From Eledone cirrhosa (taxonomy: Eukaryota): a stretch of 64,000 nucleotides of DNA. The stretch covers positions 35,774,001 through 35,838,000 of the forward strand of contig OZ024747.1 of NCBI GenBank assembly GCA_964016885.1. Reading direction: 5' to 3'. A program made the position numbers and the translations under genes. How positions within the stretch are numbered: the stretch's first letter is position 1; each line of letters opens with the position of its first letter. This document shows positions 1,914 to 51,935 of this stretch, one piece after another. The notes beneath the pieces were generated by a model. The model had not been told where the DNA came from, did no database searches, and saw only the letters and a program-made list of their open reading frames with translations.

Positions 1914-1970
<57 letters not shown>

Positions 1971-1977
1971 GTTATTA
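1914..1977. repeat. (TTA)n microsatellite shared by the 3' ends of Tx1 T1 and Dong D1
   Basis: Read directly; one TTG variant unit near the Dong end. Confidence 0.98.
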
Positions 1978-4423
1978 CTCCTTGAGTCTCAGTCATTGAT
2001 GTTAGTTAACTGGAAAGTTTGTTGGAATGAATATCAAGCCACTACCTGCAGCTTCAGATATTCAGGACGTATCGGAGGGTTCTTGCTGTTCCCAGCAAGC
2101 ATGCCTTTTGAAGCGTTCCAAAAAGCGTGAAGGGGCCGATTTTCTTTAACCATCCCTGGAAACTTTTGGAGAGGTCCCCAGTGCGCCTATGACAATCGGG
2201 ATCACTTTGACTTCATGGCAGTTCCAAATCCTTTTTACCTCCCACTTTAAGTCCTGGTATCGGTTAATTTGCTCCCTCTCCTTCTCTTGCACTCTCGTGT
2301 TGAATGGGCAGGCCACATCCACAATCAGGCACGATCTTTTTTCTTTGTCCACAACCACCAGGTCAGGTCTATTGTGTTCCAGTTTTTCTTCCGTCTGTAT
2401 CCTTAAATCCCACAGCACCTTCACCTGATTGTTCTCCATCACCGCCTCTGGCCTATGCTCATACCATTTCTCAGAATGTGGTGAATTGTTTACTTTGCAC
2501 AGGTGCCAGTGGATCACCTTGCCCATCACATCATGTCTCCAGCCCTTATAGTGGGTCTGGGCTAGGTGTTTACACTCGGACACAATGTGAGCCACAGTCT
2601 CCTCTCTCTCTCCACAGATCCTGCACAGTGGGCTAGCCTCCTCCTTGTAAATATGGTGCTTCAACCACTTCGTTTTGAGGGCCTGCTCCTGCGCAGCCAT
2701 TAGCATTCCTTCTGTAGCCTGTTTGAGGTCTCCTCTTCTCAACCAGTTCCATGTCTGTGGATCTCTAAATTCAGTTTTCTCAAAGAAGGTACTATGAAGG
2801 GATTTTCCCTTAAGGCTGCTCTTCCTCCTTGATGTTATTTCCTCCTTGGACATCCCCTGGCCTACTGTCCCCTCCTTCAGTACAGTTCTGAGCATTGGCT
2901 CCTTACTATAGGTCACGTATTTGTATAGGTTGTTTTTCTCCATCTGAACACAGTCCTCTATGCTGATAAGACCTCTTCCACCCTCAGATCTCCTTAGGTA
3001 GAGTCTATCGACATCACTCCTCTTGTGGAACATGTTGTAGATAGTCAATAGCTTCCTAGTCTTCCTATCCGTTTCTTTTTGTTCAGCAACATTACATCTC
3101 AGAATTCCCGCACTGTACTTAATAATAGACACAGCTCGGGAATTTACTGCGCTTATGACATTTCTGCTGTTCAGATGTGACTTCAATACGCTCCTTACTC
3201 TCCGAATGTATTCAGTTCTTAACAATTCCTTCATTTTTTTGTTCTTTATGCCATCAGCCTCCAGAACGCCCAAATACTTGTACCCTTCCTCAGAGTCAAT
3301 TTCCTTTATCATCTCACCTGTTGGTATCTGGATCCCGTTACTTCTGCTCAACCTACCCTTCTTCATCACAATGACTCCACATTTACCAATACCAAACTGC
3401 ATACATATATCACTGCTGAAAATACGGACAGTGTCAACAAGCACATCCAACTCCTTCTCACTTTTCCCGAAGAGCTTAAGATCGTCCATGAAGAGGAGGT
3501 GATTGATGGTAAGCTCTCCCCTTCCCAACTTGTATCCTGCTCTCACTTTTCGCAGCATAATGGTCAAGGGCATCAGGGCAAGGACAAACAACAGAGGGGA
3601 CAGGCTATCTCCCTGGAAGATACCTCTCTTGATCTTCACGCTTCCCAAGGATACTCCAGTTGATGTCAACTCTGTCTCCCAGGACCCCATACTCCTGCCT
3701 AGCAACTGTCTGATGTTATCTGCCACCCTGAAGATCTCCAGGCTTTTGGTGATCCAGGAATGAGGCACCATGTCAAATGCCTTTCTGTAGTCTATCCATC
3801 CCATGGCAAGATCAGTGTGTCTCCTCCTGCAATTCCCCATTACCATCTTATCAATAAGTAACTGGTCCTTTGTACCACGTGACTTCTTTCGGCATCCTTT
3901 CTGTTCGTCCGGTAACAAGTTGTTTGTGTGGAGGTGATGGTAGATTTCCTCAGACACAATGCTCGTCAACAGTTTCCACATAACGGACAGACATGTGATA
4001 GGTCTATAGTTGGTAACATCATTACACTTGATTCGGTCTTTCATTATCAGAACTGTGGTACCTTTTGTCAACCACTCTGGCACCTCACCCGACACCAAGC
4101 AGTCATTGAACATGGCCGTCAGCTTCGGGTGGAGGGATGTTAAATGTTTAATCCAATACCCCTGCACACCATCTGGGCCTGGTGATTTCCAGTTGGTTAG
4201 TTTTTTGGCCTGCCCCTTAAGAGTTTCAACTGTGATACTCAAATCAGTTTGTTGTTGTGCCTGCTCACCGATCTCCCTCTGTACTGTCTCAATCCACCCT
4301 GCCTGGGCATTGTGTCTAACATCCTGCTCCCATATTCCTCTCCAGAATGTTTTAGTTTGCTCCGCCCCAGGGATCAAGTCGTTGCCTTTTCTTTCCCCTC
4401 AAGCTGTCCAAACAGCATCTTCT

Positions 4424-4424
<1 letters not shown>
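1978..4424 (-). mobile_element. R4/Dong-type RLE non-LTR retrotransposon, 5'-truncated (copy D1, family A)
   Basis: ORF 2146..4377 (-) has RT (KSPGPDG, YRPITCL, DYRKAFD, QGDSLSP, FMDD), a CRIC..ET..H....C finger, RHD and an RPDLVV..IVDV restriction-like endonuclease motif. The 3' end runs into (TAA)n. Confidence 0.93.
2054..4377 (-). pseudogene. Dong RT-RLE ORF, 5'-truncated, with a 1-nt frameshift near the C-terminus
   Basis: The natural end ...ACLLGTARTLRYVLNI* (TGA at 2054-2056) is out of frame with ORF 2146..4377. Confidence 0.8.
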
Positions 4425-4461: not shown

Positions 4462-4670
4462 GGCAACCTACGTAGGAAATCGTATTATCGTGAGCTCCGC
4501 AAAGGTTTGTTATTTCCGTTTGTTTAAAAATTGCCATTTATGGAAAATTTTATTGTAAACTGTTTATAAGCACACATACATTGTTTTCCGAAAAGGACAC
4601 CCAAAAACATTGGGGCCTTGTGCCCAAAATTTTAACTTTTATTATTATCCAAAAATTTATTTGAAAAAAA

Positions 4671-6661
4671 ATGGCTAATTCCCCTCTGCACGAAGCAGCT
4701 GAAAGCCTTCCTCACAAAATAACACCTCACACCGACACCACCATTGTAAATGTTACTACGTTTGCCAACACAAAAAAAAATATAAGCAATAGCAATATTT
4801 TAAATTTGTCTCAGGCAGACATTCATTTCCCGCCATTACCAATGACTGCAGGTGTTAAACCCTCCACCACCACCACCACCACCGCGACAACCACCACCAC
4901 CACCACCACCGCGACAACAGAAACAAAAGAAGAAAAAAATAAATTAACTCGTGACGTCGAAATGAAATCAAGCAAAATGGACTCTTCCCCACCAAAGACG
5001 ACTGACGCCACCACCACCACCACAACTGAAAATAAAATTAATATTAACGATAGCAACAACAACAACAATGACATTATAAAACCGACCCTCAGTTTCGCCA
5101 TCGTAGCAAAACAATTCGAAGCGTTCACGGTAACTCAAGAAGATTTAGAAAATGCCAAACAAATGGTAAAGAAAGATGGGTACAGGGTCAGCCGACCCCC
5201 CCCCCCCCACCTAATAAAATGGAGCATCGGCGCCTGTGCACCGTGTCGTATAGAACAATAAATGTAAAATCGCGCCGAGTGGAACGGGCATCCGAGTCCC
5301 AAATCCAAAAAGCTTTGGGACATGTGTGGGCAAGAAAAACCCACATCAGACGTGGGCAAAAGTATGGAACCGTGGATGTGTTCTTTGAAACACCAGAGGA
5401 GGCTAGAGAACACTCCATGGCCCCATTAAAAAGTGACGACTTCACACTCGTCCCAAGCTATTGTGGCCAGAGACTCGTAAAGATCAGGGTGACCCATGTT
5501 CCACCGGCCATCGAAATTCCCTGGCTAATAGCGGCTGTCATCGCCGGCATCGAGGCCAACACGAAAATAATAACAATAGCAAAAGAAAAGCAGGAAAACT
5601 GGTCCGGATTTGGGATGGAGCTCCTGATCCAAGCGGACCAAAAAAGCATTGAGGAGATCCCAGAGGTAATAGACCTCACTGACGGCAGCCACCTCACGGT
5701 AATTGTCGAGGGCAGAAGACCTAGGTGTGTCGTTTGTGGTGAAGGAACCCACCTAAGGGCTTTCTGCCTTCAGGCTAAAAGGTTGAGGCCACCTCTCCTA
5801 CCCACCCCAGTGACACAACCATCAACACCACCAGTAGCAGAGATGCCAGCAACAACTGTAGCAGCAACAACCGAAGCAACTATAACAGCAACAACCCCAG
5901 CAACAGTAGCAAAACCAACACCACTACCACCAACAGCAAAACTAACACCACCACCACCCAACGCTTCAGAACTAGCACCAGCGCCTACACCATCCACCAC
6001 ACCACAATCAAAACTAACGGCTGTGGAGGATTTTCCACGGCCTATCACAACTGGAGACAGATTGTGACGACGAGGAGTGGGAAACGATATCCGGAAAAAA
6101 AAAAGAAACCAAAAAAGAAAAAATTCTCTTCCTTCCCCCTCCAAAAACAAAATACAGAGGGAAACAAATAAACTAAGAAACAAAAAAGTTAGGACAGATA
6201 TGCCACCATCCACACCAGCATCACCAACCCCATCAACCCAAACACCAACACCATCACCATCATTAACTCCAACACCACCATCACCTACACCACAAAAGTC
6301 ACCAAATTGCGAAACAGAAACAAACCCACAACAAACGCAAACAAAACAAAACAACCAAAACGATACACACTACACAGCATTAAATTTGAACAACAAGCAA
6401 TTATTGCACTACATCCAACACAACACCAGCATCACAGAAAAAGACTACACAACAACCCCAAAATTCACACCACCTCCACACATACAAATCACTCGCATCA
6501 CACAGAAAACGTACATGACACTAAAACAAAAATTCCCCAAAGACATCGGAGACTTCCGACAAGCACTCTCCAGGAGGATTTATAAGGACATCCTTCCTGA
6601 GGAGGCCACAAGCAGTGAAAAGGATGGAAAAGCCGTCCTTCCCCTACGAGAAGTAAGGTAA
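4671..6661 (+). pseudogene. Tx1 ORF1 (gag-like, CCHC zinc knuckle), split into three ORF pieces
   Basis: ORFs 4671..5261, 5219..6067 (CVVCGEGTHLRAFC = CX2CX4HX4C) and 6077..6661. The first break is at the poly-C run ~5196-5208. Homologous to 32870..35024. Confidence 0.85.
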
Positions 6662-6695
6662 GTGGTCTTTCCCATCTTTTCCACTCCTTTTCAAC

Positions 6696-9600
6696 ATGAC
6701 CTCACTCAGAATAGGCAGCATAAATGCGCGTGGCTTGGGGTCGTCATGGAAGCAGGGCCACCTGCTCAACGACCTCAGGTCACTAAACATAGATGTAGTG
6801 GCCATCAGCGAGACCAGAATCTCCGAAGCACAGGCTTTCGCACCGATCTTCGGCGGCTACGATGTGTACGCATCTCCCAGCCGTCCGGGATCGGGGGGAG
6901 GAGTTGCTGTGCTTTTTCGGAGAGGTTTGGATCTTGCCATACGGGCCATCTTCATGGACCCAGAAGGTAAGTTGGTGGTGCTGGACGTGACCAGCGGAGA
7001 CGGGCAAGCTTTCAGGTTAGTGGCCGTCTATGCCCCGACAGGAGCAGGGCGGCCTGATTTCTTCCGGCGTCTGGAGACCTTTCTTGGAACGTCCCGCTCT
7101 TTAGTGTTAGTGGGCGACTGGAACGGGATCTTAGATGCACGCTGGGATTGTGTGGGATTAGTGGATAGGGAAGGAGGGTGCAAGAGTCTCACCAACCTGC
7201 TCAGACGTTTTCAACTGGCTGACAGGTACCGAATGGATTTCCCGAATGTACCAATGTGGACTTGGACAAATCGCATAGGGTCATCCAGATCATATCTAGA
7301 TAGAGTATTTTGTAGGGAAATAGATAGGTCTAGCATAGGCTGTCCACAATTCAAGATAGTCAGCTACACGGACCACAAATTCGTGATCTGTGTGCTTGAC
7401 TTAGATAGGCTTCATAGACGAGGACCCGGCTACTGGAAGCTAAACGCGTCCTTACCAGCGCGCAAGGCCTACAGAGACCGGATTAGCGAACTAGTTAAGC
7501 GGGCGTTGACGGGGGCCATCGTCAACAACAAGTGGTGGTTTGCTCTGAAAAGAGCAATTAGAATAGAGTCCATTAGGTTTAGTAAGACTTTAGCAATAGA
7601 GAAAAATAGAGCAGAGGGAGAATTAGTTAGAAAATTAGATGAGGCGCTTAGCAAAGGCATCGCGACCGACGTACTTGCGGCGAAATTGGCCCTTGACCAA
7701 TTCTTCAATGCAAAGCACGAAGGCTGCGTTGTCAGAGCTAGGGTGCGTGCTCTCAGACACGAGGGGACGAAAGCCGTTGAATGGGCCCGAGTGGCGGAGG
7801 CGCGTCGTGGCAACAAAGCCACGATCCGGTCTTTGGTGGACCACGACGGGCGCATGCTACTCGATCCCGGGCAAATGTGTGAAGCTTTTCAGCGACACTT
7901 CGCTCAACTGTTCGGGGGCAGTGGCGGGCCGGATGGAGGGATGGACTTTAGTGTCTACCTCGACGGACTGCCGCGGCTTTCGGCCACTGAGGCGGAGTGT
8001 TGCGAAAAGCCGATAACAACCGCTGAAGTACGGGATGCAATGACTAGTTGCACAAGGGGCAAATCGCCTGGTTTGCATGGTCTGCCCTATGAACTTTACG
8101 TACAAATGCCAAACTTGTTCGGAGGCCTCTTGGCGGACGTCTACTGCAACTGGCAACAGAACGGGAGAATTCCCAGCTCTGTGAGCCGAGGAGCGGTGGC
8201 GCTGCTGAGAAAGGATCCGAACAAGGGGGATAACATAGATAATTTTAGGCCCATAACTCTGCTAAACACAGAGTTCAAGATTTTGGCCAAGGTGCTAGCA
8301 AAGAGGTTGGCGCTTGTCGTTGGTGGTCTGGTGGGAGAGGCACAGACATGCGCCATTCCCGACAGATCCATCCACGACAACCTCCACCTCATGCGATACA
8401 TCGTAGAGAGGGTAGCTAGGGAACCTGGCACGGGTGTGTCTTTGATCAATTTAGATCAGTCGAAAGCCTTCGATAGGGTCGACCATCGTTACCTAGCGGC
8501 AGTCCTGAGGGCCGCTAGCTTTGGGCCCGTCTTCAGAGGCTGGATCGCTGCCATGCACAGCGACATCTGCTCTGTAGTGAGAGTGAACGGTCACCTTTCG
8601 GAACCGTTCAACATCATGCGCTCGGTCCGCCAAGGATGTCCCCTCTCGTCCCTATTGTACGTATTGACTGTCGAGCCATTACTGCACAAACTGGAGACGT
8701 TGAGGGGGTTCCGCGCGAACTAAGATGCGGAAGATCCGTGTCAGCATATGCCGACGATGTCACCGTAGTGGTGTCGAACGCCAAACACATCGAGGCGATC
8801 GGCACTACACTAAGAGAATACGAAGCGGTGACAGGAGCAATGATCAACCAGAAAAAGTCAGTGGGCCTGCAGCTCGGCACCTGGAGAGGCAGGTCCATGC
8901 CGTCCAACAGCGTCGTCGGGCGCTGGACGGACGGACCGGTTAAATTGCTAGGGGTCTGGTTCGGTCCAGACCTCCAGACGGACAAAAACTGGGACGAGGT
9001 GACGAGCAGGGTGGCTTCTCTCACCCAGAAATGGGCCGAGAGGAAGATATCCCTAAAAGGTCGAGCGGAGGTGGCGAATGCGTACATCGCATCCGTCATC
9101 TACTACCGCCTGACCGTCGTACCTTGTCCTAAGCCCCGCCTGACTGCGCTGGAGCGTTTGCTCTTTCGCTTCTTGTGGAAGGGACGCGCTCCGATGGTCA
9201 GGCGGTCCATCTGCTGTCAACACCCGCTACGTGGAGGGCTGGACATGCCGTGGCTGATGATGCGCAGACACGCGCTCAGGCTACGACATCTCCACCTCTT
9301 CCTCGACGGTGATCAGGTGTGGTCGCCGTTTGCAAGACACGTTTTACCCCAGCTCGTCTCCTTGACGGAGCTGCAGTCCTGGGTCAAGCGAAGACCGAGA
9401 GGGAGCGCTTGGAGACTGGAATGTCTTCAGGCGCTCACAGCCCTCGACCAATCGGGCAATGTGATCGGTGGAAACTCCACCTTGGCGTTCTATAGGGGAT
9501 TAGTAGAGGGGAAGAGCGACGACGTACTTGGAGAAACTCTAGGCGTCGACGAAAATCAACTAGCCAATCTCTTCGGAAGGACTTTCGGGCCGGGGCCTAT

Positions 9601-10114
9601 GGACAACTTCCAGAAATCCCTGGCCTGGCAGTGCTACCGAGGAGCTTTGCCAGTTCGGGATAAACTCTACAGGCATGGAGGTGCCGTCAGCCGGGCATGT
9701 CCGAGATGCGCGCAGGGCGACGAAACCGTCCTGCACGCACTCGTCCAGTGTCCGAGCATTGCTGACTTGTGGGTTTATGTCGAACACCTGCTGTCACGTG
9801 TAGGACGGATCCAGCTATCAGCTGAGTCCATCGTGAGGATTGCCCCACCCCCTTCCTTTAGCCTGGAAGGGCAGGCAGTTTTTATCTGTCTGGTGGCCAT
9901 GGCGAAAGAGATAGTATGGTGGACACGTTTGAAAGGGCTGAGGACGAGCACTTACCTCTTCGGTGATGCCCTGATTAACTTTTTCAAATTTCATTTGAAA
10001 AGGAAAATCAGGGTAGAGAGGGAAGTGCTCTCTTCCCAGCATTTTGTTGAAAGATGGGTGAGAGAAGCAAGTATGGCCCGAATGAATGGGCCTTCTCTGA
10101 GTATGTGTCTGTAA
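6696..10114 (+). pseudogene. Tx1 ORF2 (APE endonuclease + RT + zinc finger) with one frameshift near 8706
   Basis: APE motifs SINARG, SET, VYAP, GDWN, YLDR, TDH; RT motifs FRPITLLN, DQSKAFD, RQGCPLS, YADD. ORFs 6696..8723 and 8636..10114 overlap at a G run. Confidence 0.92.
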
Positions 10115-10356
10115 ATTAAAGGTGGAAAACTGGGAGAGGGCACTTGCCCTGGTGGTCAGGGCCACTGTGGTCTTTTAATGGGCTTTCTCCACAAATGTCC
10201 CTTGGAAGTCTCCCCCCTATTGGGGAATTTTTCTTTGTTATTTTATTTCAACCTCTGTTTTTTTACACGCAGAAATGCCCATTTGTACCGTCCTGTATTG
10301 TCCTGTACTGTCCTTAATGTCTACTTTATGTGAACCCTTGTGGTTAATAAAGAAAA

Positions 10357-10357
<1 letters not shown>

Positions 10358-10402
<45 letters not shown>

Positions 10403-10409
10403 GTTATTA
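10358..10409. repeat. (TTA)n shared by the 3' ends of T2 and D2
   Basis: Read directly; same TTG variant unit as 1914-1977. Confidence 0.98.
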
Positions 10410-13400
10410 CTCCTTGAGTCTCAGTCATTGATGTTAGTTAACTGGAAAGTTTGTTGGAATGAATATCAAGCCACTACCTGCAGCTTCAGATATTCAGGAC
10501 GTATCGGAGGGTTCTTGCTGTTCCCAGCAAGCATGCCTTTTGAAGCGTTCCAAAAAGCGTGAAGGGGCCGATTTTCTTTAACCATCCCTGGAAACTTTTG
10601 GAGAGGTCCCCAGTGCGCCTATGACAATCGGGATCACTTTGACTTCATGGCAGTTCCAAATCCTTTTTACCTCCCACTTTAAGTCCTGGTATCGGTTAAT
10701 TTGCTCCCTCTCCTTCTCTTGCTCTCTCGTGTTGAATGGGCAGGGCACATCCACAATCAGGCACGATCTTTTTTCTTTGTCCACAACCACCAGGTCAGGT
10801 CTATTGTGTTCCAGTTTTTCTTCCGTCTGTATCCTTAAATCCCACAGCACCTTCACCTGATTGTTCTCCATCACCGCCTCTGGCCTATGCTCATACCATT
10901 TCTCAGAATGTGGTGAATTGTTTACTTTGCACAGGTGCCAGTGGATCACCCTGCCCATCACATCATGTCTCCATCCCTAATAGTGGGTCTGGGCTAGGTG
11001 TTTACACTCGGACACAATGTGAGCCACAGTCTCCTCTCTCTCTCCACAGATCCTGCACAGTGGGCTAGCCTCCTCCTTGTAAATATGGTGCTTCAACCAC
11101 TTCGTTTTGAGGGCCTGCTCCTGCGCAGCCATTAGCATTCCTTCTGTAGCCTGTTTGAGGTCTCCTCTTCTCAACCAGTTCCATGTCTGTGGATCTCTAA
11201 ATTCAGTTTTCTCAAAGAAGGTACTATGAAGGGATTTTCCCTTAAGGCTGCTCTTCCTCCTTGATGTTATTTCCTCCTTGGACATCCCCTGGCCTACTGT
11301 CCCCTCCTTCAGTACAGTTCTGAGCATTGGCTCCTTACTATAGGTCACGTATTTGTATAGGTTGTTTTTCTCCATCTGAACACAGTCCTCTATGCTGATA
11401 AGACCTCTTCCACCCTCAGATCTCCTTAGGTAGAGTCTATCGACATCACTCCTCTTGTGGAACATGTTGTAGATAGTCAATAGCTTCCTAGTCTTCCTAT
11501 CCGTTTCTTTTTGTTCAGGAACATTCCATCTCAGAATTCCCGCACTGTACCTAATAATAGACACAGCTCGGGAATTTACTGCGCTTATGGCATTTCTGCT
11601 GTTCAGATGTGACTTCAATACGCTCCTTACTCTCCGAATGTATTCAGTTCTTAACAATTCCTTCATTTTTTTGTTCTTTATGACATCAGCCTCCAGAACG
11701 CCCGAATACTTGTATCCTTCCTCAGAGTCAATTTCCTTTATCATCTCACCTGATGGTATCTGGATTCCGTTACTTCTGCTCAACCTACGCCTCTTCATCA
11801 CAATGACTCCACAATTACTAATACCAAATTGCATACATATATCACTGCTGAAAATACGGACAGTGTCAACAAGCACATCCAACTCCTTCTCACTCTTCCC
11901 GAAGAGCTTAAGATCGTCCTTGAAGAGGAGGTGATTGATGGTAAGCCCTCCCTTTCCCAACCTGTATCCTGCTCTCACTTTTCGCAGTACACTGGTCAGG
12001 GGCATCAGGGCAAGGACAAACAACAGAGGGGACAGGCTATCTCCCTGGAAGATACCTCTCTTGATCTTCACGCTTCCCAAGGATTCTCCAGTTGATGTCA
12101 ACTCTGTTTCCCAGGACCTCATACTCCTGCCCAGCAACTGTCTGATGTTATCAGCCACCTTGATGATCTCCAGGCTTTTGGTGATCCAAGAATGAGCCAC
12201 CATGTCAAATGCCTTACTGTAGTCTAACCATCCCATGGCAAGATCAGTGTGTCTCCTCCTGCAATTCCCCATTACCATCTTATCAATAAGTAACTGGTCC
12301 TTTTTACCACGTGACTTCTTTCGGCATCCTTTCTGTTCGTCCGGTAACAAGTTGTTTGTGTGGAGGTGATGGTAGATTTCCTCAGACACAATGCTCGTCA
12401 ACAGTTTCAACATTACAGACAGACATATGATAGGTCTATAGTTGGTAACATCATTACCCTTGATTCGGTCTTTCATCATCAGAACTGTGGTACCTTTTGT
12501 CAACCACTCTGGTACCTCACCTGACACCAAGCAGTCATTGAACATTGTTGTCAGTTTCGGGTGGAGGGATGTTATATGTTTAATCCAATACCCCTGCACA
12601 CCATCTAGGCCTGGTGATTTCCAGTTGGTTAGTTTTTGGCCTGCCCCTTAAGAGTTTCAACTGTGATACTCAAATCAGTTTGTTGGTGTGCCTGCTCACC
12701 GATCTTCTTCTGTACTGTCTCAACCCACACTGCCTGGTCATTATGTCTAACATCCTGCTCCCATATTCCTCTCCAGAATGCTTTAGTTTGTTCCGCCCCA
12801 GGGATCAAGTCGTTGTCTCTTTCTTTCCTCTCAAGCTGTCCAAACAGCATCTTCTGGTTGTTGTCGAACATGCGGTTCTGTTTATACTGACTGACTCTGT
12901 TCTCGTATCGCCTGATTTTTGCACTCTTTGCTACAATGCGTTGCTTCAGTTCCTCTATGATCATATTTAGCTTTTTACTCCTAGTTTTGTACTTTATTTC
13001 CAGTCTATTTTTAGTGTCTATGTTTTTTAGTGTCCCATTCAGTAGGGACTCAAGGTTTCTAATGTCATTTATCATTTCCCTGATTTGACCACTCAGTCGT
13101 TTCTTCCACCAAGGCTCTGCTCTTTCTCGTCTGTTGTTTCCTCTCGCTTTTATACCAAGTAGTTTCCTCACCGTATTTGCTGTTGCGTTGAGGATATTGT
13201 TGCACTGGTGAAGGCTCCTCGCCTCAAGGTATGGGATGACTTTGTTTACCTTAGCTGTTGTTTCTTTTAACTTTTTCCTGTCTACAAATCTTAGGTTCAT
13301 AGATCTCCCACTATCATTGTTCAATTCATCTACCACTAAGTTTAGTATATCTTCCAAATCTTGTCCTAGCCCGTCAGCATTCATCTCCTCAGTGGCCGTA

Positions 13401-14947
13401 TCTCTGTTCCAGGTATTATTTATCTCAGCATTCAGATCATTGTCTGTTTCGGGTGGTTCCTCCGTTCTCTCGACCTCTTCACCTTCATTTCCCACTGGCT
13501 CGTTTGCCTGGCATACTCCACCCGCCATCTCCAAGCTAATCTCTTTGTTCAGTTCCTCCAGTTCCAGCTCGCTTATCCACCCATTAGTTCTTATTACACG
13601 AGCCTGCCCGGCCAGTTTTTGTTCATCTAATTTAAATAGACCAATCTCGTTCCAGATGTTATGCATCCGTCTCCTGTAGCCCCTCTCCTTGGGGTTACTT
13701 TATAGGTAACATTGCATAACAGTTCTATTCAATTCTTTCGTCCAGTTGGTTCTGGCCCCTTTCCTTCTTCTTCTTCCTCCAACATCAGCAGTATTTGGTT
13801 GACAGTCAGGTTCCTGCTGCTGAGCCAGGGGGGCACCTGTTGGGTGAGAGTCTGTCACATGACGTTCTAGTCTCCATTTCACCGTTATTCGAACTGTTTA
13901 TGTTCGATATTTAAACACTCTTATCGAGGATTGGCGAATGTATAGTTACATAGCTATCTGTGGATTCGCCGTTCCACTTGGCCCTTGTGTGGCATTATCA
14001 CCACGCTGTATACGAACACACATAAACAAACAAACACACAGGCAGAAAGGGCCCCAAAAATGAATAAGCATAAGTTTCATTGTATTGTAGTGTTCGAATG
14101 TCTGACTTAGTTTTTGTTTTTTTAGTTTTAGTTCTTCCCCCCCTCTTCTCTGTCCGTCCGCCTGCTTCTCTCTTCATTCTTATTTTCTTTACGTTTTTTG
14201 TTTTTTTTTTGTTTTTGTTTTTCTCTGTTTGTTTTTCTCGTTTTTTGCTGTTGTTGCTGTGCTGCTTTGGTTTTGTTGTTTGTTTTTTCTTTTTTTCTTT
14301 TGAGTCTATCTATATATTTTGATGCCTTCCTCTTTTTTAGTAGTAGGAATTCTATAATGTGGTGGCAGCCGCCAGCTGGGTGAAGTGGGTGACTGGCGGC
14401 GGTAGCGATACTGAGACAGTGGTGGTGGTGATGTCGATACCGAGGCAGTGGTGATCAGTGAAGGAGTGAAGAGTGGTGGCGGCGGTGATGAGATAGTGGT
14501 GGTAATGATGGCAGTAGTGAGCGGTGGTGGTGAAATTGCCGTTATCTGGCTATTGTGTTTAGTGTACACAGGTGATGAGGTGGGTGGTGTATCTAGTTTC
14601 TGGTGTTGGTGAGTTTGGCTGTTCCATATAGTGTATCTAGTTTCTGGTGTTGGTGAGTTTGGCTGTTCTATATAGTGTAGACATAGGAGAGGAGGGGGGG
14701 GGGTTCTTCTTCCATTTATAGCCATTTTCTTTTTTGGATATACAGTGTACAATACAAAGTTGAATATTTGAATATATGAGCCTTATAACAATATATTTTG
14801 GGTCCGAATTTTTTTGGGCTCAAGCCGGGTGCTTTACGTAGCATTTGTACTAAGAGTTGTTATTTCACAAATGATTTAAATATGTTAAAAATTCAAAACT
14901 TACGGGAGCGATTTCATGACCTCCGCCACCTCGTGCGTCTTCTTCCC
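10410..14947 (-). mobile_element. Apparently full-length R4/Dong-type LINE (copy D2, family A) with a ~1-kb 5' leader
   Basis: ORF pieces 13700..13882 (RTNWTKELNRTVMQCY), 12629..13666, 10977..12599 (RT, catalytic motif FKDD) and 10578..10961 (RLE). Bounded by (TTA)n at both ends. Confidence 0.9.

Positions 14948-15013
<66 letters not shown>
14948..15013. repeat. (TTA)n
   Basis: Read directly. Confidence 0.98.
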
Positions 15014-15014
<1 letters not shown>

Positions 15015-15415
15015 AGTTGCATATATCTTGCTTTATGTTCGTACGAGTTATCACCAAGTCACAACCAGTCACCTCAAGAGACAACAAGGTCCGCCATGTT
15101 CAAGAAGGAACATACATACTCACACATGCATCTTTAGTGTTTAGACTTGTGATGTACTTATATTGACAGAATCTTCCTTAGTATATGGGCAGTTCCCATT
15201 AGTACTATCTTTTGTATTTCTCTTATACGCGGGTTTCCTGGGATTTGCGATAAGTAATCACTAGACCCCTTAGCTATAGGACTGCACATTGAAATTATAT
15301 GGTCAATGGTCTCTGGTTGTTTTTTACATACAGGGCATAATGGGCTGCATCCATTTTTTATTATGTTGGGTTGGTAATTTTTTGTTGGCAGATCTTGTGC
15401 TGATATAATCATATA
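15014..15415 (-). mobile_element. 3' fragment of a second Dong/R4 family (family B), internally deleted
   Basis: Translates to SAQD..CPVCKKQPETIDHIISMC..IQKIVLMGTAHILRKILSI*; nearly matches parts of 23017..23640; 3' end abuts (TAA)n. Confidence 0.85.
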
Positions 15416-17797: not shown

Positions 17798-19127
17798 GCG
17801 GTGTTTCTCAACGAGGCCCTAGGTCCTCTCTCGTAGTCATATGGAAATGTTGTTGGGCATAGGAAATGTTGGGTGGCCATATGATATTAATGGAGCATTT
17901 TAAACAATAAAGTGTAAGAATACACCTTATTGTTTCAAATGCTCCAGTAATAGCATATGGCCACCCAATTTAGGGAGAAAGTTTGCTGACATGTGATGTT
18001 TGCCAGAACGCATGTGATTGCTAAGAAACTTGCTGACGTACGAGTGTATGCACGCTTTCTGTCTTCATATCCAGCCACAATGCGTGACCATGACCGTAAC
18101 GTCGTGAAACTTTCTGGCCAATATGTAACGTCAACCTGTGGCTGCAGCTCATGAATATCGACTGACCTGCTTAGATGACTGCTGATTTCAAACCACGCCG
18201 AGTTTAACTTTGCCTTTCATCCTTACGGGGTCAATAAAATAAAGTACCAGTAATATACTGGAATACTTGCTGGCCTTGTGCCAAAAGTAGAAACAATTAT
18301 TAACCCATCACATTTCACAAATATAAGGATCGTCCATACCAGTGGAGACATTTAACATCCGATTGCTCACAAATATCTTACCTATGGCATCAAATAAGAA
18401 TAAAGTACGGCAATATAGAAACGATTATTTGAAATTCGGTTTCACTGAGGCACCTCATGATTGTCGATTGCCTATGTGTTTTCTCCGACATCAAACTCTG
18501 AGCAACGACGACTCTTACAACACTTCAATGCGAAGCATGGAGACAAGTCATCAAAGCCACTTTCATACTTCCAAGATCTTCAAAGGAAAGTTTGCTGCCT
18601 GTATCTCAATGTTTTTTCTAAAGTAGCCGAAAAGAAGGATAAATCATTAATAGCGAGCTACGAACTTTCAAAATCGATTGCCAAGTGTGGAAACCCCTAT
18701 ACGATAGGTGAGCAGTTAATTAAACCAGCCATTTCTGTGTTTTTACACACTTATATATCACGTAGACGGCTCAGTGCTCCGGCTTATGCTGCTCAGTAAT
18801 GACATAATATGGCAACGAATCTTTAAGATGTCCTTTGATGTGGAACATCAGTTTTACAAATATATTCGAGAAATACGTTTTTCACTTCAGCTCGATGAGT
18901 CAACCTTTTGTGGAAGCCGGTCTGTACTTCTGGCATATGTCAGATTCCAAAACGATGATGCTTTTCGAGAGGAAATAATTTTTTGTCGTGCTTTTGAAAC
19001 TACGAGAGCTTCAGATGCATACGACCTTGTGATGTCGTACTTATCAGAAAACAAGATTCCTATTGCATCCGTTACATCATGTGCAGCAGAAGGCGCACTC
19101 GCAATGTTGGGTAGACACAATAGCTGG
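17798..19127 (+). mobile_element. hAT (Charlie/Buster, ZBED5/SCAND3-like) DNA transposon remnant, 5' half
   Basis: Broken ORFs from 18384: MASNKNKVRQYRNDYLKFGF, YTIGEQLIKPA, FSLQLDEST. TIR-like CGGTGTTTCTCAAC at ~17799 and a ~100-bp subterminal hairpin at 17869..17968. Cut off by the RTE at ~19128. Confidence 0.8.
18140..18301 (+). mobile_element. tRNA-derived SINE with Nin/Deu-like core, inserted in the hAT remnant
   Basis: Core GCCTTTCATCCTTACGGGGTCAATAAAATAAAGTACCAG and 3' end GGCCTTGTGCCAAAAGTAGAAACAATTATT; same family as the copies at 46.4-46.9 kb and 51.5 kb. Confidence 0.8.
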
Positions 19128-22102: not shown

Positions 22103-23010
22103 CATTTTTTGAGTCTCAGTAAATGATGTTATTTTACTGGAAAATTTGTTGAAATTAATATCAAGCGCTACCTGCAGCCTCAGATATTCAAGACGTATCG
22201 AAGGGTTCTTTTTGGTCTCAGCAAGCATGTCATTTTAAGTGTTCCAAAAAGCGGGGCTGGACTAATTTTCTTTAACTATCCTTGGAAACTCTTTGAGATA
22301 GTACCTAGTGCGCCTATGACAATCGGGACGACGCTGACTTCATGGCAGCTCCAAATCCTTTTTACCTCCCATTTTAAGTCCTGGTATTGTTTAATTTTCT
22401 CCCTCACCATTTCTTGCAGTCTCTTGTCAAATGGGCAGGCTACATTTACAATAAGGCACGATCTGTTTTCCTTGTCCAAAACCACCAGGTCAGGCCTATT
22501 GTGTGCCCGTTTCTTGTCCGTCTGTATCCTAAAATCCCATAGCACCTTCACCTGATCCTTTTCTATCATCCACTCTGGCTTCTCAGAATGTGGTAAATTG
22601 TTTACTTTGCATAGGTGCCAGTGGATCACCATTCTTATCACATCATGTCTCCAGCCTTTATAGTGAGTCCGGGCTAGGTGTTTAGACTCGGATACAATGT
22701 GAGCCATAGTCTCTTCTCTCTCTCCACGGATCCTACACAGTGGGCTAGCCTCCTCCTTGTAAATATGGTGTTTCACCCACTTCGTTCTGTAGCTTTTTTA
22801 AGGTCTCCTCTTTTTAACCAGTTCCATGTCTGAGTATCTATAAATTCAGTTTTCTCAAAGAAGGTACTATGAAGAGATATTTCATGAAGGTTGCTCTTCC
22901 TCCTTGTTGTTATTTCCTCCTTGGATATCCCCTGGTCTCTTGTCCTCTCCTTCAGTACAATTCTGAGCATTGGCGCCCTACTGTCAGTCACGTATTTGTG
23001 CAGGTTGTGA
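22103..23010 (-). mobile_element. Dong family A 3' fragment (copy D3), diverged
   Basis: ORFs 22276..22776 and 22773..22991 are homologous to the D1 zinc finger/RLE region; same 3'UTR. Confidence 0.9.
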
Positions 23011-23015
23011 TGTAT

Positions 23016-24730
23016 TTATATTGACATAATCTTCCTTAGTATATGGGGAGTTCCCATTAGCACTATCTTTTGTATTTCTCCTATACGCGGGTTTCCTGGG
23101 ATTTGCGATAAGTAATCATTAGACCCCATAGGTATCATTCCTAGAGCGCCTACAACCACTAGTATTATTTTAGTTCTCAATTTCCACATTTTTCCAATTT
23201 CTATCTCCAGGTCCTTATACTTGCTCAATTTTAGTCTATTGGAACGGACATATCAATCAGCAGGCTTACCCTATTTTTAAACTCTTTCAATATTATATCA
23301 GGTCTATTTGCATCTATTTTTCGGTCTGTTTGGATGCAAAAGTTCCACAAGATTGAGATGTAATCTTTTTCAAGTATGGTAGATGGTTGATGCTCCCACC
23401 AATTCTTTTGATGGGGCAGGTCAAAATTCTTACACATTATCCAATGTATGTATTGTGCAGTTCTGTCATGCCTGTTTAGGTATTCGGTTGGAGCTATAGG
23501 ACTGCACATTGTAATTATATGATCAATGGTCTCTAGTTGTTTTTTACATACACGGCATAATGGGTTGCATCCATTTTCTATTATGTTGGCTTGGTATTTT
23601 TTTGTTGGCAGACACTGATCTTGTGCTGATATAATCAGTCCTTCAGTCTCCGATTTCAGTCCAGAGGATGTTCAACCACGGATGTGTTAAAGTGTTGTCA
23701 ACATCAGGATCGTTCGCTCTTTCAGGGTATTTTCCATACAGAGGCTTTTCTTGCCATTTCTTAGCCAGTTTCTATAGTATTTCTTTCTTTGCAGTTACTT
23801 TTACCTTGTTTTTCTGTGTTTTCCATTTCAGCAGTAAATGGGACTTCTGAAATTTGTAGTCCATTACTGTATCTTTGTGCATCTTTTGTAATGGAGTATG
23901 ATCTTTTGATGCTTTCGTGTTTCAAAACGAGTTTGATCATCCAATCATGTGATTCCCTTAAATATGTAGATAATCCAATTGTTGCAGTTTTCAACGCAAC
24001 ATCTAACTGGATTAACTCACGCCCTCCTTCTTTCCTAGGGAGATATATTCTATCTGTATCTGCCTTAGGGTGATGCATTTTACGCATGGTTAAGAATTTC
24101 TAATGTTTTTGTATCGAGCCTACGGATCTCTGTGATTGACCAGTTGATGACATTGTAACTGTAGGTTACTACTGGTATGGCAAGATTGTTTATGGCATCG
24201 ATCCTATTCCTTGCATTCAATTCCGTTCTTAAGAATGCTCATAATCTGTGGTAACATTCCTTCCTTATCCTTACCTTCATTGTCGAGTGCTTCATTCCGT
24301 CTCCTTCACAAACACCTAGATATTTGTAAGTTTCCTCTTGATCAAGTTCTCTTATCACGTTCCCCCGATCAAGATTAATATCTGAACTCTTCAGCAGCTT
24401 TCCTTTGGTGAACGTTGCTTTAGAGTATTTATCTTGTCCAAACTCAATTTTAATATGATCACTGAACTGCTTCGCAGTGGATAATATATCTTGCAATTGT
24501 TCATCATTTTTGCAAATAGTTTCAGGTCATTCATGTAGAACAAGTGATTAATGGTTTTGTCATAGACTTTATATCCATGTTTTGTTTCATTGAGCATTTT
24601 ACTTAATGGTATAAGTGCGATGCAGAATAAAAGCGGTGATAAAGAATCACCCTGAAAAATTCCATAATTAATATTAACTTCTCCAACTTCCAGTGATTCC
24701 TTTTCACTATTCAAAAGGGTAGAAAGGATT
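23016..24730 (-). mobile_element. Dong family B fragment (RT C-half + RLE), decayed
   Basis: GIFQGDSLSPLLFC, HLFYMNDLKLFAK, RHD, RPDIIL, KYKDL..VVGALG. Confidence 0.88.
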
Positions 24731-29453: not shown

Positions 29454-32400
29454 GATCTTTGAGTCTCAATCATTGATGTTAGTTAACTGGAAAGTTTGTT
29501 GAAATGATATATCAAGCCACTACCTGCAGCCTCAGATATTCAGGACGTATCTGAGGGTTCTTGCTGTTCCCAGCAAGCATGCTTTTTGAAGTGTTCCTAA
29601 AAGCGGGGCGGGGCCAATTTTCTTTCACCATCCCTGGAAACTTTTTGAGATAGTACCTAGTGCGCCTATGACAATCGGGACCACTTTGACTTCATGGCAG
29701 TTCCAAAGCTTTTTTACCTCCCACTTTAAGACTTGGTATCGGTTAATTTTCTCCCTCCCCTTCTCTTGCACTCTCGTGTCGAATGGGCTTTATTTGTTCC
29801 CCTCTTCATTACAAAGACTCCAAACTTACTAATACCAAATTGCATACATATATCATTGCTGAATATACGGACAGTGTCAACAACCTCATCCAACTCCTTC
29901 TCACTCTTCCCGAAGAGCTTAAGATCGTCCATGAAGAGGAGGTGATTGATGGTAAGCTCTCTCTTTCCCAACTTATATCCTGCTCTCACCTTTCGCAGTA
30001 TAATGGTCAGGGGCATCAGGGCAAGGTCAAATAACAGAGGGGACAATCTATCTCCTTGGCAGATACCTCTCTTGATCTTCACGCCTCCCAAAGATTCTCC
30101 AGCTGATGTTAACTCTGTTTTCCAAGTCTTCATACTTTTGCTCAACAACTGTCTGATGTTATCTGCCACCTTGAAGATCTCTAGGATTTTGGTGATCAAA
30201 GAATGAGGCACCATGTCAAAGGCCTTTTTGTAGTCCATCCATCCCATGGCAAGACCAATGTGGTGTCTTCTCTCGCAATTCCTCATTACCATCTTATCAA
30301 TAAGTAACTGGTCCTTTGTACCACGTGACTTCTTTCGGCATCCTGTCTGTTCGTCCGGTAACAAGTTGTTTGTGCGCAGGTGATGGTAGATTTCCTCAGA
30401 CACAATGCTTGTCAACAGTTTCCACATTACGTACAGACATGTGATAGGTCTATATTTGGTAACATCATTACCCTTGATTCGGTCTTTCAGTACCAGAACT
30501 GTGGTACCTTTTGTCAACCACTCTGGTACCTCACCTGTCATCAATCAGTCATTGAACATGGTTGTCGGTTTCGGGTGGAGGGATGTTACATTTTTAATCC
30601 AATACCCCTGCACACCATATGGGCCTGGTGATTTCCAGTTGGTTAGTTTGTTGGCCTGCCCATTAAGAGTTTCAACTGTGCTACTCAAATCAGTTTGTTG
30701 GTGTGCCTGTTCACTAATCTCCTTTTGTACTGTCTCAATCCACACTGCCTGGTCATTATGATTAACATCCTGCTCCCATATTCCTCTCCAGAATGTCTTA
30801 GTTTGTTCCACCTCAGGGATCAAGTCGTTTCCTCTTTCTTTCCCTTCAAGCTGTCCAAACAACATCTTCTGGTTGTTGTCAAACATGCGGTTCTGTCTAT
30901 ACTGACTGACTCTGCTCTCATATCGCCTAATTCTGTATTCTCTGCTACGATGCGTTGCTTCAGTTTCTGTATGATAATATTTAGCCTTTTCCTCCTAGTT
31001 TTGTAATTTATTTCCATTCTATTTTTAGTGTCTATGTTTTTTAGTGTCCCACTCAGTAAGGACTCAAGCTTTTCAATGTCATTTCTCATTTCCCTGATTT
31101 GACCATTCAGTCGTTTCTTCCACCAAGGTTCTGATCTTTCTTGTTTGTGTTTCCTCTCGCTTTTATGCCAAGTAATTTTACCGCATTTGCTGTTGCTTTG
31201 AGGATATTGTTGCACTGGTTCCTCGCTTCAAGGTATGCGATGACTTTTTTACCTTAGCTGTTGTTTCTTTTAACTTTTTCCTGTCTACAAATCTTAGGTT
31301 CATAGGTTTCCCACTATCATTGTTCATTTCATCTACCACTATGTTTAGGTTATCAACCAAATCTTGTCCTAGCCCGTCAGCATTCATCACCTCAATGGCC
31401 GTATCTTTGTTCCAGGTATTATTTATTTCAGCATTCAGATCATTGTCTGACTCGGATGGTTCCTCCGTTCTCTCAACCTCTTCACCTCTATTTCCCACTG
31501 GCTCGTTTGCCTGACATACTCCACTCTCCATTTCCAACCTAATCTCTCTGCTCAGTTCCTCCAGTTCCAGCTCGCTTATCCACCCATTAGTTCTTATTAC
31601 CCGAGCCTGCCCGGCCAATTTTTGTTCATCTAATTTAAATAGACCAATCTCGTTTCCTGTAGCCCTTTTCCTTGGGGTTACTCTTCAGGTAACATTGCAT
31701 AACAGTTCTATTCAATTTTTTCGTCCAGTTGGTTCTGGTCCCTTTTCTTCTTCTTCCTCCGACACCAGCAGTATTTGGTTGACAGCCAGGTCCCTGATGC
31801 TGAGCCAGGGAGCACCTGCTGAGCCAGGGAGCACATGACATTTTAGTCTCCACTTCACCATTATTCGAACTGTTTAGTTTCGACATTGAAACACTCTTAT
31901 CGAGGATTGGTGAATGTATGGTTACATAACCACCGGTGATTTGATCACCCTCGGTGATTTTAGCGTGGCACTATCACGCTGTAGACGAACATAAATAAAC
32001 AAACAAACAAATAGGTACGCCCCCCCCCCAAAAAAAAAAAGCATAAGTTTCATTGTAATGTAATGTTTGAATGTCTGACTTAGTTTTTTTGCTTGTTTGT
32101 CTGTCTGTTTGTTTTTCTTTTCATTTTTCTTTTCTTTACGTTTTTCGTTGCTGCTGTGCTGTTTTGATTTTGATTTTTGATTTTTTGTATCTTTGACTGA
32201 GTCATCAAATCAGTCTATTTATATTTTTTGATACCATCTCATTTAGTGGGAATACTATGATGCCTGTCTTAGCAGTGGAAAAGAATAGTGGCGGTAGCAA
32301 TAATGAGGCAGTGGTGATGGTGATGTGATCGTAGTACTGTAGTGATGGCGTTGAAGTTGAAGTAAAAATAGAAGTTGAGGTAACTTGACTAGAGTTTTAG

Positions 32401-32672
32401 GCGTGGTAGTGGTGGTGTTGATGGTGAAATTAATTGCCTGTCTGTCCACTTAGCCATTTTTCTCTTTTTCGACGATAACATTTCTGATCCAAAATTAAAT
32501 ATTAAATATTGGGGCCCTATGCCGTAATGTGCTGCGTGTCGCCTGCTGAGGGTCAAAACTGTAATCTTATATTTCATTTGTAATAAAAATTATTCTATCA
32601 CAGTTGTTTTAAATAAGTAAAATCAAAAACTTACGGGAGCGATTCCATAACGATATATATCCACCATGTGCG
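29454..32672 (-). mobile_element. Dong family A copy D4: 5' end retained, ~1-kb internal deletion near 29790
   Basis: ORF start MSKLNSSNNGEV at 31886; RT in 29726..30544 joins directly to the RLE tail; leader homologous to the D2 leader. Confidence 0.88.
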
Positions 32673-32689
32673 TTATTATTATTATTATT
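32673..32689. repeat. (TTA)n between the 5' ends of D4 and T4
   Basis: Read directly. Confidence 0.93.
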
Positions 32690-35600
32690 GAATGCTATGG
32701 TTGACGGAGGCTCGGCTCTGTAAGGTATTGTAAATTTTGAATACTATAACAATTGTAAATTGTTTAAAACTTTAACGAACTTGTAGACAAAAACACCCTC
32801 CTCCTCGTGAGAGGGGTCTTTCTGCACGTTATTTGGCCCTTCGGGGTTAAATAGCTGCTTATTGGGGTTTTGGACCCAATATTTATTTTAAACAAAAAAA
32901 AAAACAACATAGCTACGAAAAAGAAATTTCATAGGTCACTCCCACTCATTCCGTCTTCTTCTTCCTCAATCATCACTACAACAGAGAGAAGATTGTCTCT
33001 CTCCCTCCCTTCTTTAATAAATGTGTCTCTCTCCCTCCCTTCTCTTTCGCAAGCGACGAAAGAAAAGAAAAGTCTCGTGCAAAGCGTGCAAGGTTTGTCC
33101 ACGACGACGACGACAGCGACGAAACAGGTGTGCGGGAAATATGAAAACCCAGTTCATTCGTCTGACGTCAGGAATAATAGCAGTAGCAGCCGTAATAACA
33201 ATAGCAACAGTGACAATGAAAACAACAGTAGCAGCCGCAACAGCATCACCAGCAGCATAAACAACAACAGCAATAGCAGCAGCAACACCAACAACAACCA
33301 CAGCAACAGCGGCGGAGGCAGTAGTCGTAGTACCTGCAGCAACAACAAAAGTAACAGCAGCTCTGACAACAACAGCAACAACAGCAGCAAAGAAAAACCA
33401 ATCTCATTTGCAGGTATTGCGAAAAACTTGGAAACAATCCTCATAACAAATGAGGAATTAGAGGAAGCGAAGAAGATGGTGACAAAGACTGGACACCGAG
33501 CAATCTGCAAAGCTGCGGAAACATTTTTCGAAACCCAACAGCACTGTACGGTCACGTACCGTACAGCAAGTACAAAATCCCGTAGGGTGGAAAGAGCCAC
33601 AGAGTCTCAAATACAAAAAGCCTTGGGGTCTGTGTGGCAGCGGAAAACGCACATCACCCGAGGCAAAAAATATGCCACCGTAGACGTACTTTTTGCCACA
33701 CCCCAGGAGGCAAAGGCCCAATCCGTAGTGACCCAAGGAGTGAGGAAATGGTGTTGGTGCCCTCCTACTGCGGGCAAAATAATTGTGAGGGTCAAACTGA
33801 CCCACGTCTCCCCCGGGATGGCCCCTTCTTGGCTGGTCGCGTCTGTCCTCGTCGGAATCGAGGACAAAACAACAGTACTGCAAGTACAGAAAAAAGTAAG
33901 AGAAGATTGGGTCGGCACCTCCATTGAGATGCTAATCCAAACCAACCAGGAGTGCATCGAAGCTATCCCGGATGTGATAGACTTCGATAACGGCACTCAA
34001 CTGCCCATAAGTGTTGAGGGAAAACGCCCGAAATGCTTTCGCTGTGGATCGAAGACTCACCTCAGGGCCTTCTGCAACGAGAAGACCCTGAGAAAGGAGA
34101 AAACCCCCCTCCATCCGAAACCGGCTCCACGGCTACCAGCAACAGGACAAGCGGCAGCCAGGAACGATAGGTCCGTGGCACCCGTACCCACGCCACGGAA
34201 ATCAAAGACAGCAGTAGCAGTGGAAATATTAACAACAACAACAGCAATACCAAATGCAGCTGCAACAGAGACTCCAGTGCAAACATCACCAACAACAACA
34301 AGTGAAAGAGTGGAGCTGGTAGCCCTCCCCGACCTCACAGAATCAGACATGCAGTGTGAGGTGGGAGAGAGATGGCAAAAGGTCGTAAGAAGGCACAAAC
34401 GCAGAAGCAGCGCATCGTCGCCTTTGAAAAGGGAGGAAAGAAATAAAAAAAAGCGTAAAGTCTACTGCAAAGAGACCCACAGCAGCAACACCACCAACAC
34501 CATCACCACCAACACTAGCACCACCATCACCACCGGCGACAACCCCACCGCCAACAACACCTTCAACACCACCAACACCACCAACACAAGCACCAACATC
34601 GCAAACACAACAACAAAACACACACACCCAGCAACAACGACAAGAAAATAGCAGAACCACACCCCACCCCCAGAAAAACAAATGCACGGCAATAAATACA
34701 CACAACAAGAAACTAATGACTTACATAATTGAACACACAGACATTTCACAACACGACTACATAATACCAGCACCAATCAAAACGCCAACTAACATAAGAC
34801 TGCTAAAAATAGCACAGAAACAATACACAAACATTAAAACGAAATTCCCCAACGCAGTTGGTGATTTCAGGGACCTAGGAGGAACTATCAATCGAAGAGT
34901 ATATTCAGACATTCTCATAGAAGAGACGACGACCAGCCGAAGGGACGATTCAACGGTCCCTTCACCAGACGATCAAGTGAAAAGGGATGTAAAAACCATC
35001 CCTCCTCTACGAAAAGTACGGTAAGTAGTCTTTGCCATCTTTTCCACTCTATTTTAAACATGACCTCACTCAGAATAGGCAGCACAAATGCGCGTGGCTT
35101 GGGATCGTCATGGAAGCAGGGTCACCTGCTCAACGACCTCAGGTCACTAAACATAGATGTAGTGGCCATCAGCGAGACCAGAATCTCCGAAGCACGGGCC
35201 TTCGCACCGATCTTCGGCGGCTACGATGTGTACGCATCTCCCAGCCGTCCGGGATCGGGGGGAGAAGTTGCTGTGCTTTTTCGGAGATGTTTGGATCTTG
35301 CCATACGGGCCATCTTCCTGGACCCAGAGGGTAAGCTGGTGGTGCTGGACGTGACCAGCGGAGACGGGCAAGCTTTCAGGCTAGTGGCCGTCTATGCCCC
35401 GACAGGAGCAGGGCGGCCTGATTTCTTCCGGCGTCTGGAGACCTTTCATGGAACGTCCCGCTCTTTAGTGTTAGTGGGCGACTGGAACGGGATCTTAGAT
35501 GCACGCTGGGACTGTGTGGGATTAGCGGATAGGGGTGGAGGGTGCAAGAGCCTCACCAACCTGCTCAGGCGTTTTGAACTGTCTGACAGGTACCGATTGG

Positions 35601-49267: not shown

Positions 49268-49327
<60 letters not shown>

Positions 49328-51769: not shown

Positions 51770-51935
<166 letters not shown>

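Follow-up and report, generated by a model that had tools for sequence, protein, structure and literature searches.

R2/R1 hybrid SIDEs of Drosophila appear, by analogy, to be the closest precedent for the leader described here. They are described as RLE/APE chimeras that share a target locus and join a 5′ expression module to a foreign 3′ part (PMC3414825). They are short and non-autonomous, combine an R2 ribozyme with the 3′ end of R1, and are proposed to have arisen by template jump or recombination (PMC3414825). The same source reports that R2 template jumps occur in vivo and judges DNA-level recombination likelier for the R2/R1 hybrids. L1 families are described as recruiting new 5′UTRs (PMC3600994). 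R2 itself is transcribed from its target and freed by a ribozyme, as described in PMC7650587. A microsatellite offers Dong/R4 elements no such target promoter. Dong-R4 is reported to be the largest recently active LINE class of O. vulgaris by coverage (PMC13282606) and, among molluscs, to be largely cephalopod-restricted (PMC10294476).

The window analyzed here is a 64-kb stretch of DNA in which two Dong copies carry a long leader. The preferred reading, with a probability of about 0.55, is that a Dong/R4-type (RLE) lineage long ago acquired a Tx1-type (APE, L1-group) 5′ end and kept it as this leader.

Dong and Tx1-type elements of the window

Non-LTR retrotransposons nested in (TTA/TAA)n arrays make up the first 39 kb of the window. 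Tx1-type copies lie at 1-1913 (T1), 4462-10357 (T2), ~24720-29417 (T3), and 32691-38733 (T4), all on the forward strand and all with (ATT)n at the 3′ end. Copies of the main Dong family lie at 1978-4424 (D1, 5′-truncated), 22107-23008 (D2, truncated), 10410-14947 (D3), and 29454-32673 (D5, internally deleted), all on the reverse strand and all with the array at the 3′ end. Dong elements insert into (TAA)n with fixed polarity. D3 is 4538 nt long, and its ORF is full-length though broken. The D3 body (10410..13877, reverse strand) consists of this single ORF (RT, CCHC, RLE; inferred ATG at 13877) and a short 3′UTR. The D5 body (29454..31857, reverse strand) has an internal deletion near 29788/29799. 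A (TAA)n target array (14948..15013) adjoins the 5′ end of D3, and the array at 10358..10409 is common to the 3′ ends of T2 and D3. The T4 5′UTR (32691..32916, forward strand) stands head-to-head with D5 across a 16-nt array.

The Dong ORF, as read in D1, contains RT, a CCHC knuckle, RHD, and PD..D endonuclease motifs; a regex search of the D1 ORF for the final Lys motif of the endonuclease found none. Pfam detected RVT_1 without Exo_endo_phos in both Dong pieces (D1 and D3). Against PDB, R2 proteins ranked above L1 (E 3e-31 vs 1e-14). T2 and T4 encode two ORFs, with APE and RT domains in ORF2 (Pfam), and the best match of this type of ORF2 among PDB structures is L1 ORF2 (E 6e-37). Tx1-type ORF1 has a CCHC knuckle, and its core falls near CCHC/ZCCHC3-like clusters at 0.90-0.93. 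Structure and target suggest the Dong/R4 label; structure and microsatellite targeting suggest the Tx1 label for T2 and T4. Database gene models P0018, P0063, and P0086 combine a Tx1-type ORF1 core with host domains unrelated to it. These fusions are probably mis-predicted exons and possibly exonisation. A word-index search with T4 ORF1 found no match among 619 candidates.

D1 and D3 (1926-4424 vs 10358-12856) are 97% identical overall and 99.7% identical over the last 333 nt, with a common array variant at the junction. They may be recent sibling insertions or products of local duplication or conversion. A second, more divergent RLE (Dong/R4-like) family is present as fragments at 15014-15411 and 23005-24720 (reverse strand), in the polarity of the main Dong family. 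One fragment adjoins the 5′ array of D3, and the other is joined directly to D2 where its 5′ end is truncated. The window also holds a 1.2-kb inverted repeat pair (41171-42333 and 45085-46212; 85% identical) that terminates in three tandem units of 99 bp (44929-45227), a MITE-like 100-bp palindrome (17869-17968), an inverted pair of 93-95% identity (47971-49530), and multi-kilobase inverted microsatellite-rich repeats (51933-64000).

The leader as an integral part of Dong

The first-pass annotation described a homologous leader in both 5′-complete Dong copies. All motifs it quoted were found in place, including the shared block starting at 14068/32041, ACTTACGGGAGCGATT at 14898/32629, and the motifs of T2 and T4. 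Homology of the D3 and D5 leaders was confirmed by nhmmer (E 5.5e-12 for the head, 2.6e-55 for the remainder). The D3/D5 alignment runs from the 5′ array into the ORF, and the leader spans 0.8-1.07 kb. The Dong frame from near ATG 13877 aligns with the N-termini of seven full-length relatives, leader not included; these seven were aligned out of nine relatives found. The Dong ORF is complete without the leader, and the leader is therefore a 5′UTR, of 1070 nt in D3 and about 815 nt in D5. Recently active Dong-R4 insertions of O. vulgaris average 4.19 kb (division of figures in Table 1 of PMC13282606), a mean that indirectly fits the 4.54 kb of D3 better than a leaderless 3.47 kb, provided that the host is an octopus. 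The repeat content of the window hints at a cephalopod.

All parts of the D3 leader are read on the reverse strand. The Tx1-like head (14719..14947) begins at the 5′ terminus and reaches the AAAATGGCTA start context, with its ATG at +223, and is the putative captured internal promoter region. It includes a conserved block (14895..14917) that is identical to D5 at 22 of 23 positions and holds GCTCCCGTAAG, a perfect donor-like GTAAGT (GT at 14903), and a 5-codon uORF. The ACC-rich stretch (14350..14725) contains a 44-nt tandem duplication at 14587-14679 and starts a Thr/Pro-rich ORF that reaches 14306. The A-rich stretch (14116..14349) is 61% A, is alignable between D3 and D5, and contains no AATAAA or ATTAAA. 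A second conserved block (14068..14115; 45/48 identical) might mark where Dong originally started or serve as a branch-point region. The T-rich tract (14006..14067) ends in CAG at 14006, an acceptor-like site, and is followed by 128 nt of proximal 5′UTR (13878..14005). The D5 leader (31858..32673, reverse strand) has its head at 32451-32673, a donor-like GT at 32634, the second block at 32041-32088, and the acceptor-like CAG at 31979.

A chance juxtaposition, in which an independent Tx1-derived non-autonomous element (HAL1- or SINE-like) came to abut the Dong 5′ end, is very improbable as the origin of the leader. The composite look of the leader would suit such an element, with a head, an ACC-rich part, an A-rich part interpretable as the remains of a tail, and a sharp conserved block at 14115. 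Nevertheless, neither a (TAA)n array nor a poly(A) signal was found at the internal junction of D3 or D5. The 64-kb window contains no stand-alone copy, and profiles of three leader parts were significant only at D3 and D5. The flanks of D3 and D5 differ, so the two copies inserted independently. The leader also runs opposite to the Tx1 polarity, as first noted, with all four Tx1 copies on the forward strand and all four Dong-family copies on the reverse. The suggestion that the leader travels with Dong is thus upheld in both 5′-complete copies, where it forms one continuous alignable unit.

Two other origins were rejected. Simple segmental duplication of D3 and D5 conflicts with their unlike flanks and with the unequal divergence of ORF and leader. 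A Tx1 3′UTR remnant in the 3′ part of the leader was sought with a profile of the four Tx1 3′UTRs, which matched the leaders on neither strand. The leader motif and Dong relatives had no matches in prokaryotic genome contigs, as expected.

Similarity of the leader to Tx1 5′ ends

The 5′ ends compared were those of two Dong copies (D3, D5) and two Tx1 copies (T2, T4) only. The proposed resemblance to a Tx1 5′UTR held for the first ~220 nt of the leader, chiefly between D5 and T2; for D3, it depended on scoring and would not have passed by itself. The D5 head is best matched by the T2 5′UTR and ORF1 start (4462..4677, forward strand). With the ATG context removed, this pair scored above 616/616 real background windows in all three scorings and above 300/300 order-2 Markov controls (z 5.5-7.1; Gumbel p 6e-5 to 5e-3). 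In the three scorings, the last being the strictest, the D3-T2 score was reached by 0, 3, and 49 of the 616 background windows and the D3-T4 score by 4, 0, and 0. The D5-T4 score was reached by 0, 0, and 69, failing the strictest scoring, and the T2-T4 score by 14, 4, and 13. The alignment score of D5-T2 is 147, vs 110 for T2-T4, and the D5 head appears closer to the T2 UTR than the UTR of the other Tx1 copy is. When the T2 5′UTR was compared with 363 non-self windows, the 5′ ends of D5, D3, and T4 were the top three under lenient scoring, and D5 alone remained top under strict scoring.

Profile methods gave modest signals with bias. With the T2 5′ 2.2 kb as query, nhmmer recovered the D5 head (E 4.4e-4; composition bias high, 20.7). 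Searching in the other direction gave only E 0.056-0.07, and profile searches gave E 0.036-0.078 with large bias terms. D3 had no link to T2 or T4 by nhmmer or blastn, and blastn did not report the cross-family Dong/Tx1 head match.

AAAATGGCTA occurs three times in the window (T2, D3, and D5), where the chance mean is 0.26 and three occurrences were reached in 0/100 shuffles. Four landmarks, picked after the sequences had been seen, are colinear at similar offsets in all four ends. In D3/D5/T2/T4, they lie at +39/34/33/25, +68/61/62/73, +146/161/162/185, and +223/217/210/219. The head ends in an ATG at +210 to +223, with ATA instead in T4. Head sequences are about 67% AT, and the global identities of all six head pairs fall within a narrow band of 58-67%. 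The first ~220 nt of the leader are moderately supported, on these comparisons, as related to the resident Tx1 5′UTRs.

Convergence would give Dong a long 5′UTR of its own with an internal promoter, made Tx1-like by common host factors, an AT-rich nucleosome-free stretch, and a common start context. AAAATGG is an ordinary start context in invertebrates and presumably also resembles a YY1 site, so it may arise by convergence. The Dong/Tx1 head matches are short and AT-rich, the links of D3 to Tx1 are marginal, ORF1 homology is absent from the downstream 600 nt, and the identity band is narrow. This explanation is nonetheless unlikely. About 200 nt are colinear end-to-end in all four ends, from the 5′ end to the ATG position at +210 to +223, and D5 is nearer to T2 than the two Tx1 UTRs are to one another. 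A single-ORF element also has no use for an ATG-led Thr/Pro-rich frame.

The first-pass annotation had read the rest of the leader as a collapsed ORF1. This was not borne out: the match is confined to the start context and base composition, with no protein similarity. BLASTP of the leader against Tx1 ORF1 gave best E values of 0.62 (T2) and 1.6 (T4). By tblastn, the best E against the ORF1 pieces of the window (T2, T4, and T3) was only 0.055, and 150 of 367 ORF1 relatives gave no leader matches at E<=0.01. At the DNA level, several leader-vs-ORF1 pairs scored above window shuffles of single bases. Triplet shuffles abolished significance in 20/20 of these DNA comparisons (score reached by 41-285 of 300), whereas the scores of true homologues (T2/T4 ORF1 tails and D3/D5 middles) were reached in 0/200. 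The D3 and D5 leader frames show no third-position bias, and most of their indels are not multiples of three. The ATG-led Thr/Pro-rich frame has 139 codons in D3 and 22 in D5. No leader ORF relatives were found among 652 candidates, and an Atlas search gave no usable match. The order of ATG, Thr/Pro-rich, and A-rich parts is reminiscent of the low-complexity arms of ORF1. At most, the remainder of the leader would be an ORF1 N-terminus decayed beyond recognition.

Leader age, splice-like signals, and origin

The ORFs of D3 and D5 are 7-9% divergent, with no codon position more affected than another, and 3/92 and 8/95 four-fold sites differ (3-8%). Such even divergence looks like post-insertion decay from nearly identical masters. 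The heads of D3 and D5 differ at 65/174 positions (about 35%; P 2e-24 at 9%), and identity climbs to the ORF level only around 13960-13810. How identical the ACC-rich part is varies with the gap cost: one alignment gave 59% for it, and another, with 21 gaps, gave 78% for everything after the ATG. The head aligns with 4 gap columns and is therefore the basis of the age argument. Identity in the two conserved islands does not surpass that of the ORF, and either selection or patchy conversion could have kept them. The leader appears to be much older than the ORF it precedes, which argues against a fresh chimera. Two leader types on one ORF type suggest recombination near the ORF start, the alternative being very fast leader evolution.

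T2 and T4 show the same mosaic. Their ORF2 sequences are 96% identical, vs about 37-71% per 100 columns in the 5′UTR and ORF1, and their ORF1 proteins are about 38-51% identical in alignable parts. The switch is sharp and lies near 6620, ~40 nt upstream of the ORF1 stop (4462-6660 vs 32691-35024). The pattern points to swapping of 5′ modules (UTR and ORF1) within the Tx1 family. Informative sites group D3 with D5 in all three alignments (17-24 vs 6-8 and 0-4). On these sites and the homologous middles (0/200 shuffles), two independent captures were rejected. Since the D3 and D5 heads group together, the best fit is a single old capture whose products later diverged.

The shared segment could also have come from a third donor (a two-ORF LINE or the 5′ end of a host gene) with Tx1 as a fellow recipient, or have passed from Dong to Tx1. 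Such histories are helped by the swapping of 5′ modules between T2 and T4 themselves and by the heads of D3 and D5, which form their own group and are not nested with T2 or T4. L1 is also described as taking 5′ sequence from varied RNAs (PMC13174262). They are distinctly unlikely. ORF1 relatives P0010 and P0013 have, by eye, a T2-like N-terminus (Met-Ala start, FPPL motif), which makes the start region look like an original part of the Tx1 lineage.

Conserved GT-AG signals bracket the Tx1-like part of the leader in both copies. GTAAGT lies in the first island at +45 in D3 and +40 in D5 (GT at 14903/32634). In each leader, no other site matches the donor consensus better; the hexamer occurs 27 times in 128 kb. 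On the otherwise A-rich strand, a T-rich tract leads to the CAG at 14006/31979, 128 nt before the ATG, and a 96-nt AG-free zone precedes this CAG in both copies. Seven sites in 128 kb pass the acceptor filter, including both leader CAGs. The donor and acceptor filters follow the splice consensus and were set post hoc, after the sites had been seen. The predicted intron is 898 nt in D3 and 656 nt in D5, and contains 9 of the 12 upstream ATGs of D3. It is tentatively proposed that splicing from the GT at +45 to the AG 128 nt before the ATG would yield a translatable mRNA, while unspliced RNA would keep the promoter. Neither of the two leader copies in the window is spliced. A conserved uORF after splicing was rejected, as the frames, read by hand, are unlike between copies. 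Spliced L1 copies are described as losing promoter activity and as dead ends (PMC5860796), so such an intron would persist in a retroelement. The same source describes a human L1 5′UTR donor that is kept owing to overlap with a RUNX3 site, so the GTAAGT block need not splice.

GTAAGT also overlaps the ORF1 stop in all three Tx1 copies that retain the region (6658, 25713, and 35021; forward strand), among them T3, a 71%-identical copy. An acceptor-like T-run and CAG lies in the T4 3′UTR (38648), with an identical sequence in T2. Together, these donor and acceptor sites could produce an ORF1-only spliced RNA.

Alternatively, the Thr/Pro-rich frame might be a live mini-ORF1, with ribosomes that terminate on it re-initiating at the Dong ORF; the splice-like sites would then be incidental or factor-binding. 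L1 ORF2 is translated by re-initiation after ORF1 termination. AAAATGGCTA is kept at 10/10 positions in both copies despite ~35% divergence, and D3 has 139 open codons. The human L1 donor retained for a RUNX3 site (PMC5860796) would be a parallel for a factor-binding role. A live mini-ORF1 is nonetheless improbable: the D5 frame has just 22 codons, codon-position bias is absent, indels are mostly not multiples of three, and no relatives of the leader ORF were found. It can be compatible with acquisition of a Tx1 5′ end.

The proximal 5′UTR folded more stably than shuffles in D5 (31858-31978; z -3.8) but not clearly so in D3 (13878-14005; z -1.4). A stem closing just upstream of the Dong ATG is compatible with both copies, with two-sided changes at 3/26 predicted pairs; two sequences are too few to show covariation. 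The leaders had no Rfam match, and no Rfam ribozyme was found in 1-40000 at E<=1. A custom descriptor of HDV-like ribozymes had no match in D3 and matched D5 only through a poly-T/poly-G artefact; divergent folds may escape it. The T4 5′UTR (32780-32915, forward strand) folds with z -3.8 and has no Rfam match.

Acquisition of a Tx1-type 5′ end by Dong remains the preferred reading. Tx1 donor and Dong recipient would have met at a common (TAA/TTA)n target, and the leader belongs to the element in both 5′-complete copies. Transfer would have run from Tx1 to Dong, because the ATG at the end of the shared segment starts ORF1 in Tx1 and is superfluous in Dong. Fusion probably occurred by a reverse-transcriptase template jump onto Tx1 RNA, because the families always run in opposite orientations, so that a plain deletion joining adjacent copies would not leave them in one sense. 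A same-sense Tx1/Dong fusion needs an RNA-level jump or an inversion. The event would be old: at least two diverged leader types sit on nearly identical ORFs, with modules swapped near the ORF start. The captured head would act as a promoter. The full picture of an autonomous, high-copy RLE lineage with an L1-group promoter module, an RLE/APE pool of 5′ modules, and a captured part held in a spliceable intron is doubtful. If true, a captured L1-group promoter would explain the Dong-R4 expansion, and target sharing would let the two deepest non-LTR groups trade regulatory modules in autonomous elements.

The open-licence literature searched contained no description of Dong with a Tx1-like leader, nor of an RLE/APE chimera that is autonomous. 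Domain order and microsatellite targeting of D3 are like those of the Dong (Bombyx)/Rex6/R4 clade. Kibi and Koshi are described as microsatellite-specific Tx1 elements of (TC)n and (TTC)n (PMC4494074), and Tx1 in this window targets (TTA)n. Tx1-Mar families are autonomous and have a fixed U1/U2 snRNA 5′ head, proposed to derive from template switching (PMC4494074). There, an snRNA head sits on a Tx1 recipient; here, a Tx1-like head would sit on an RLE recipient. As in mammalian L1 mosaics, where co-active families exchange 5′ termini and old modules occur on young ORF2 (PMC3600994), old leaders appear on young Dong ORFs. The L1 exchange is described within one clade (PMC3600994), whereas exchange between Dong and Tx1 would cross the RLE/APE divide. 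The leader signals resemble L1 intra-5′UTR splicing and SpIREs, with a donor near the 5′ end and an acceptor upstream of the ORF (PMC5860796). Splicing is described as a cost in L1 (PMC5860796), whereas predicted splicing in Dong could allow translation behind 12 upstream ATGs. Like the R2/R1 SIDEs, Dong would be an RLE/APE chimera formed at a common target. Unlike them, D3 retains the whole RLE ORF behind an APE-type 5′ part, its partners lie in opposite polarity, and a ribozyme was not found. Recruitment of 5′ sequence and RLE/APE hybrids are already known; the two copies suggest, as a new case, an autonomous RLE element with an L1-group-like head.
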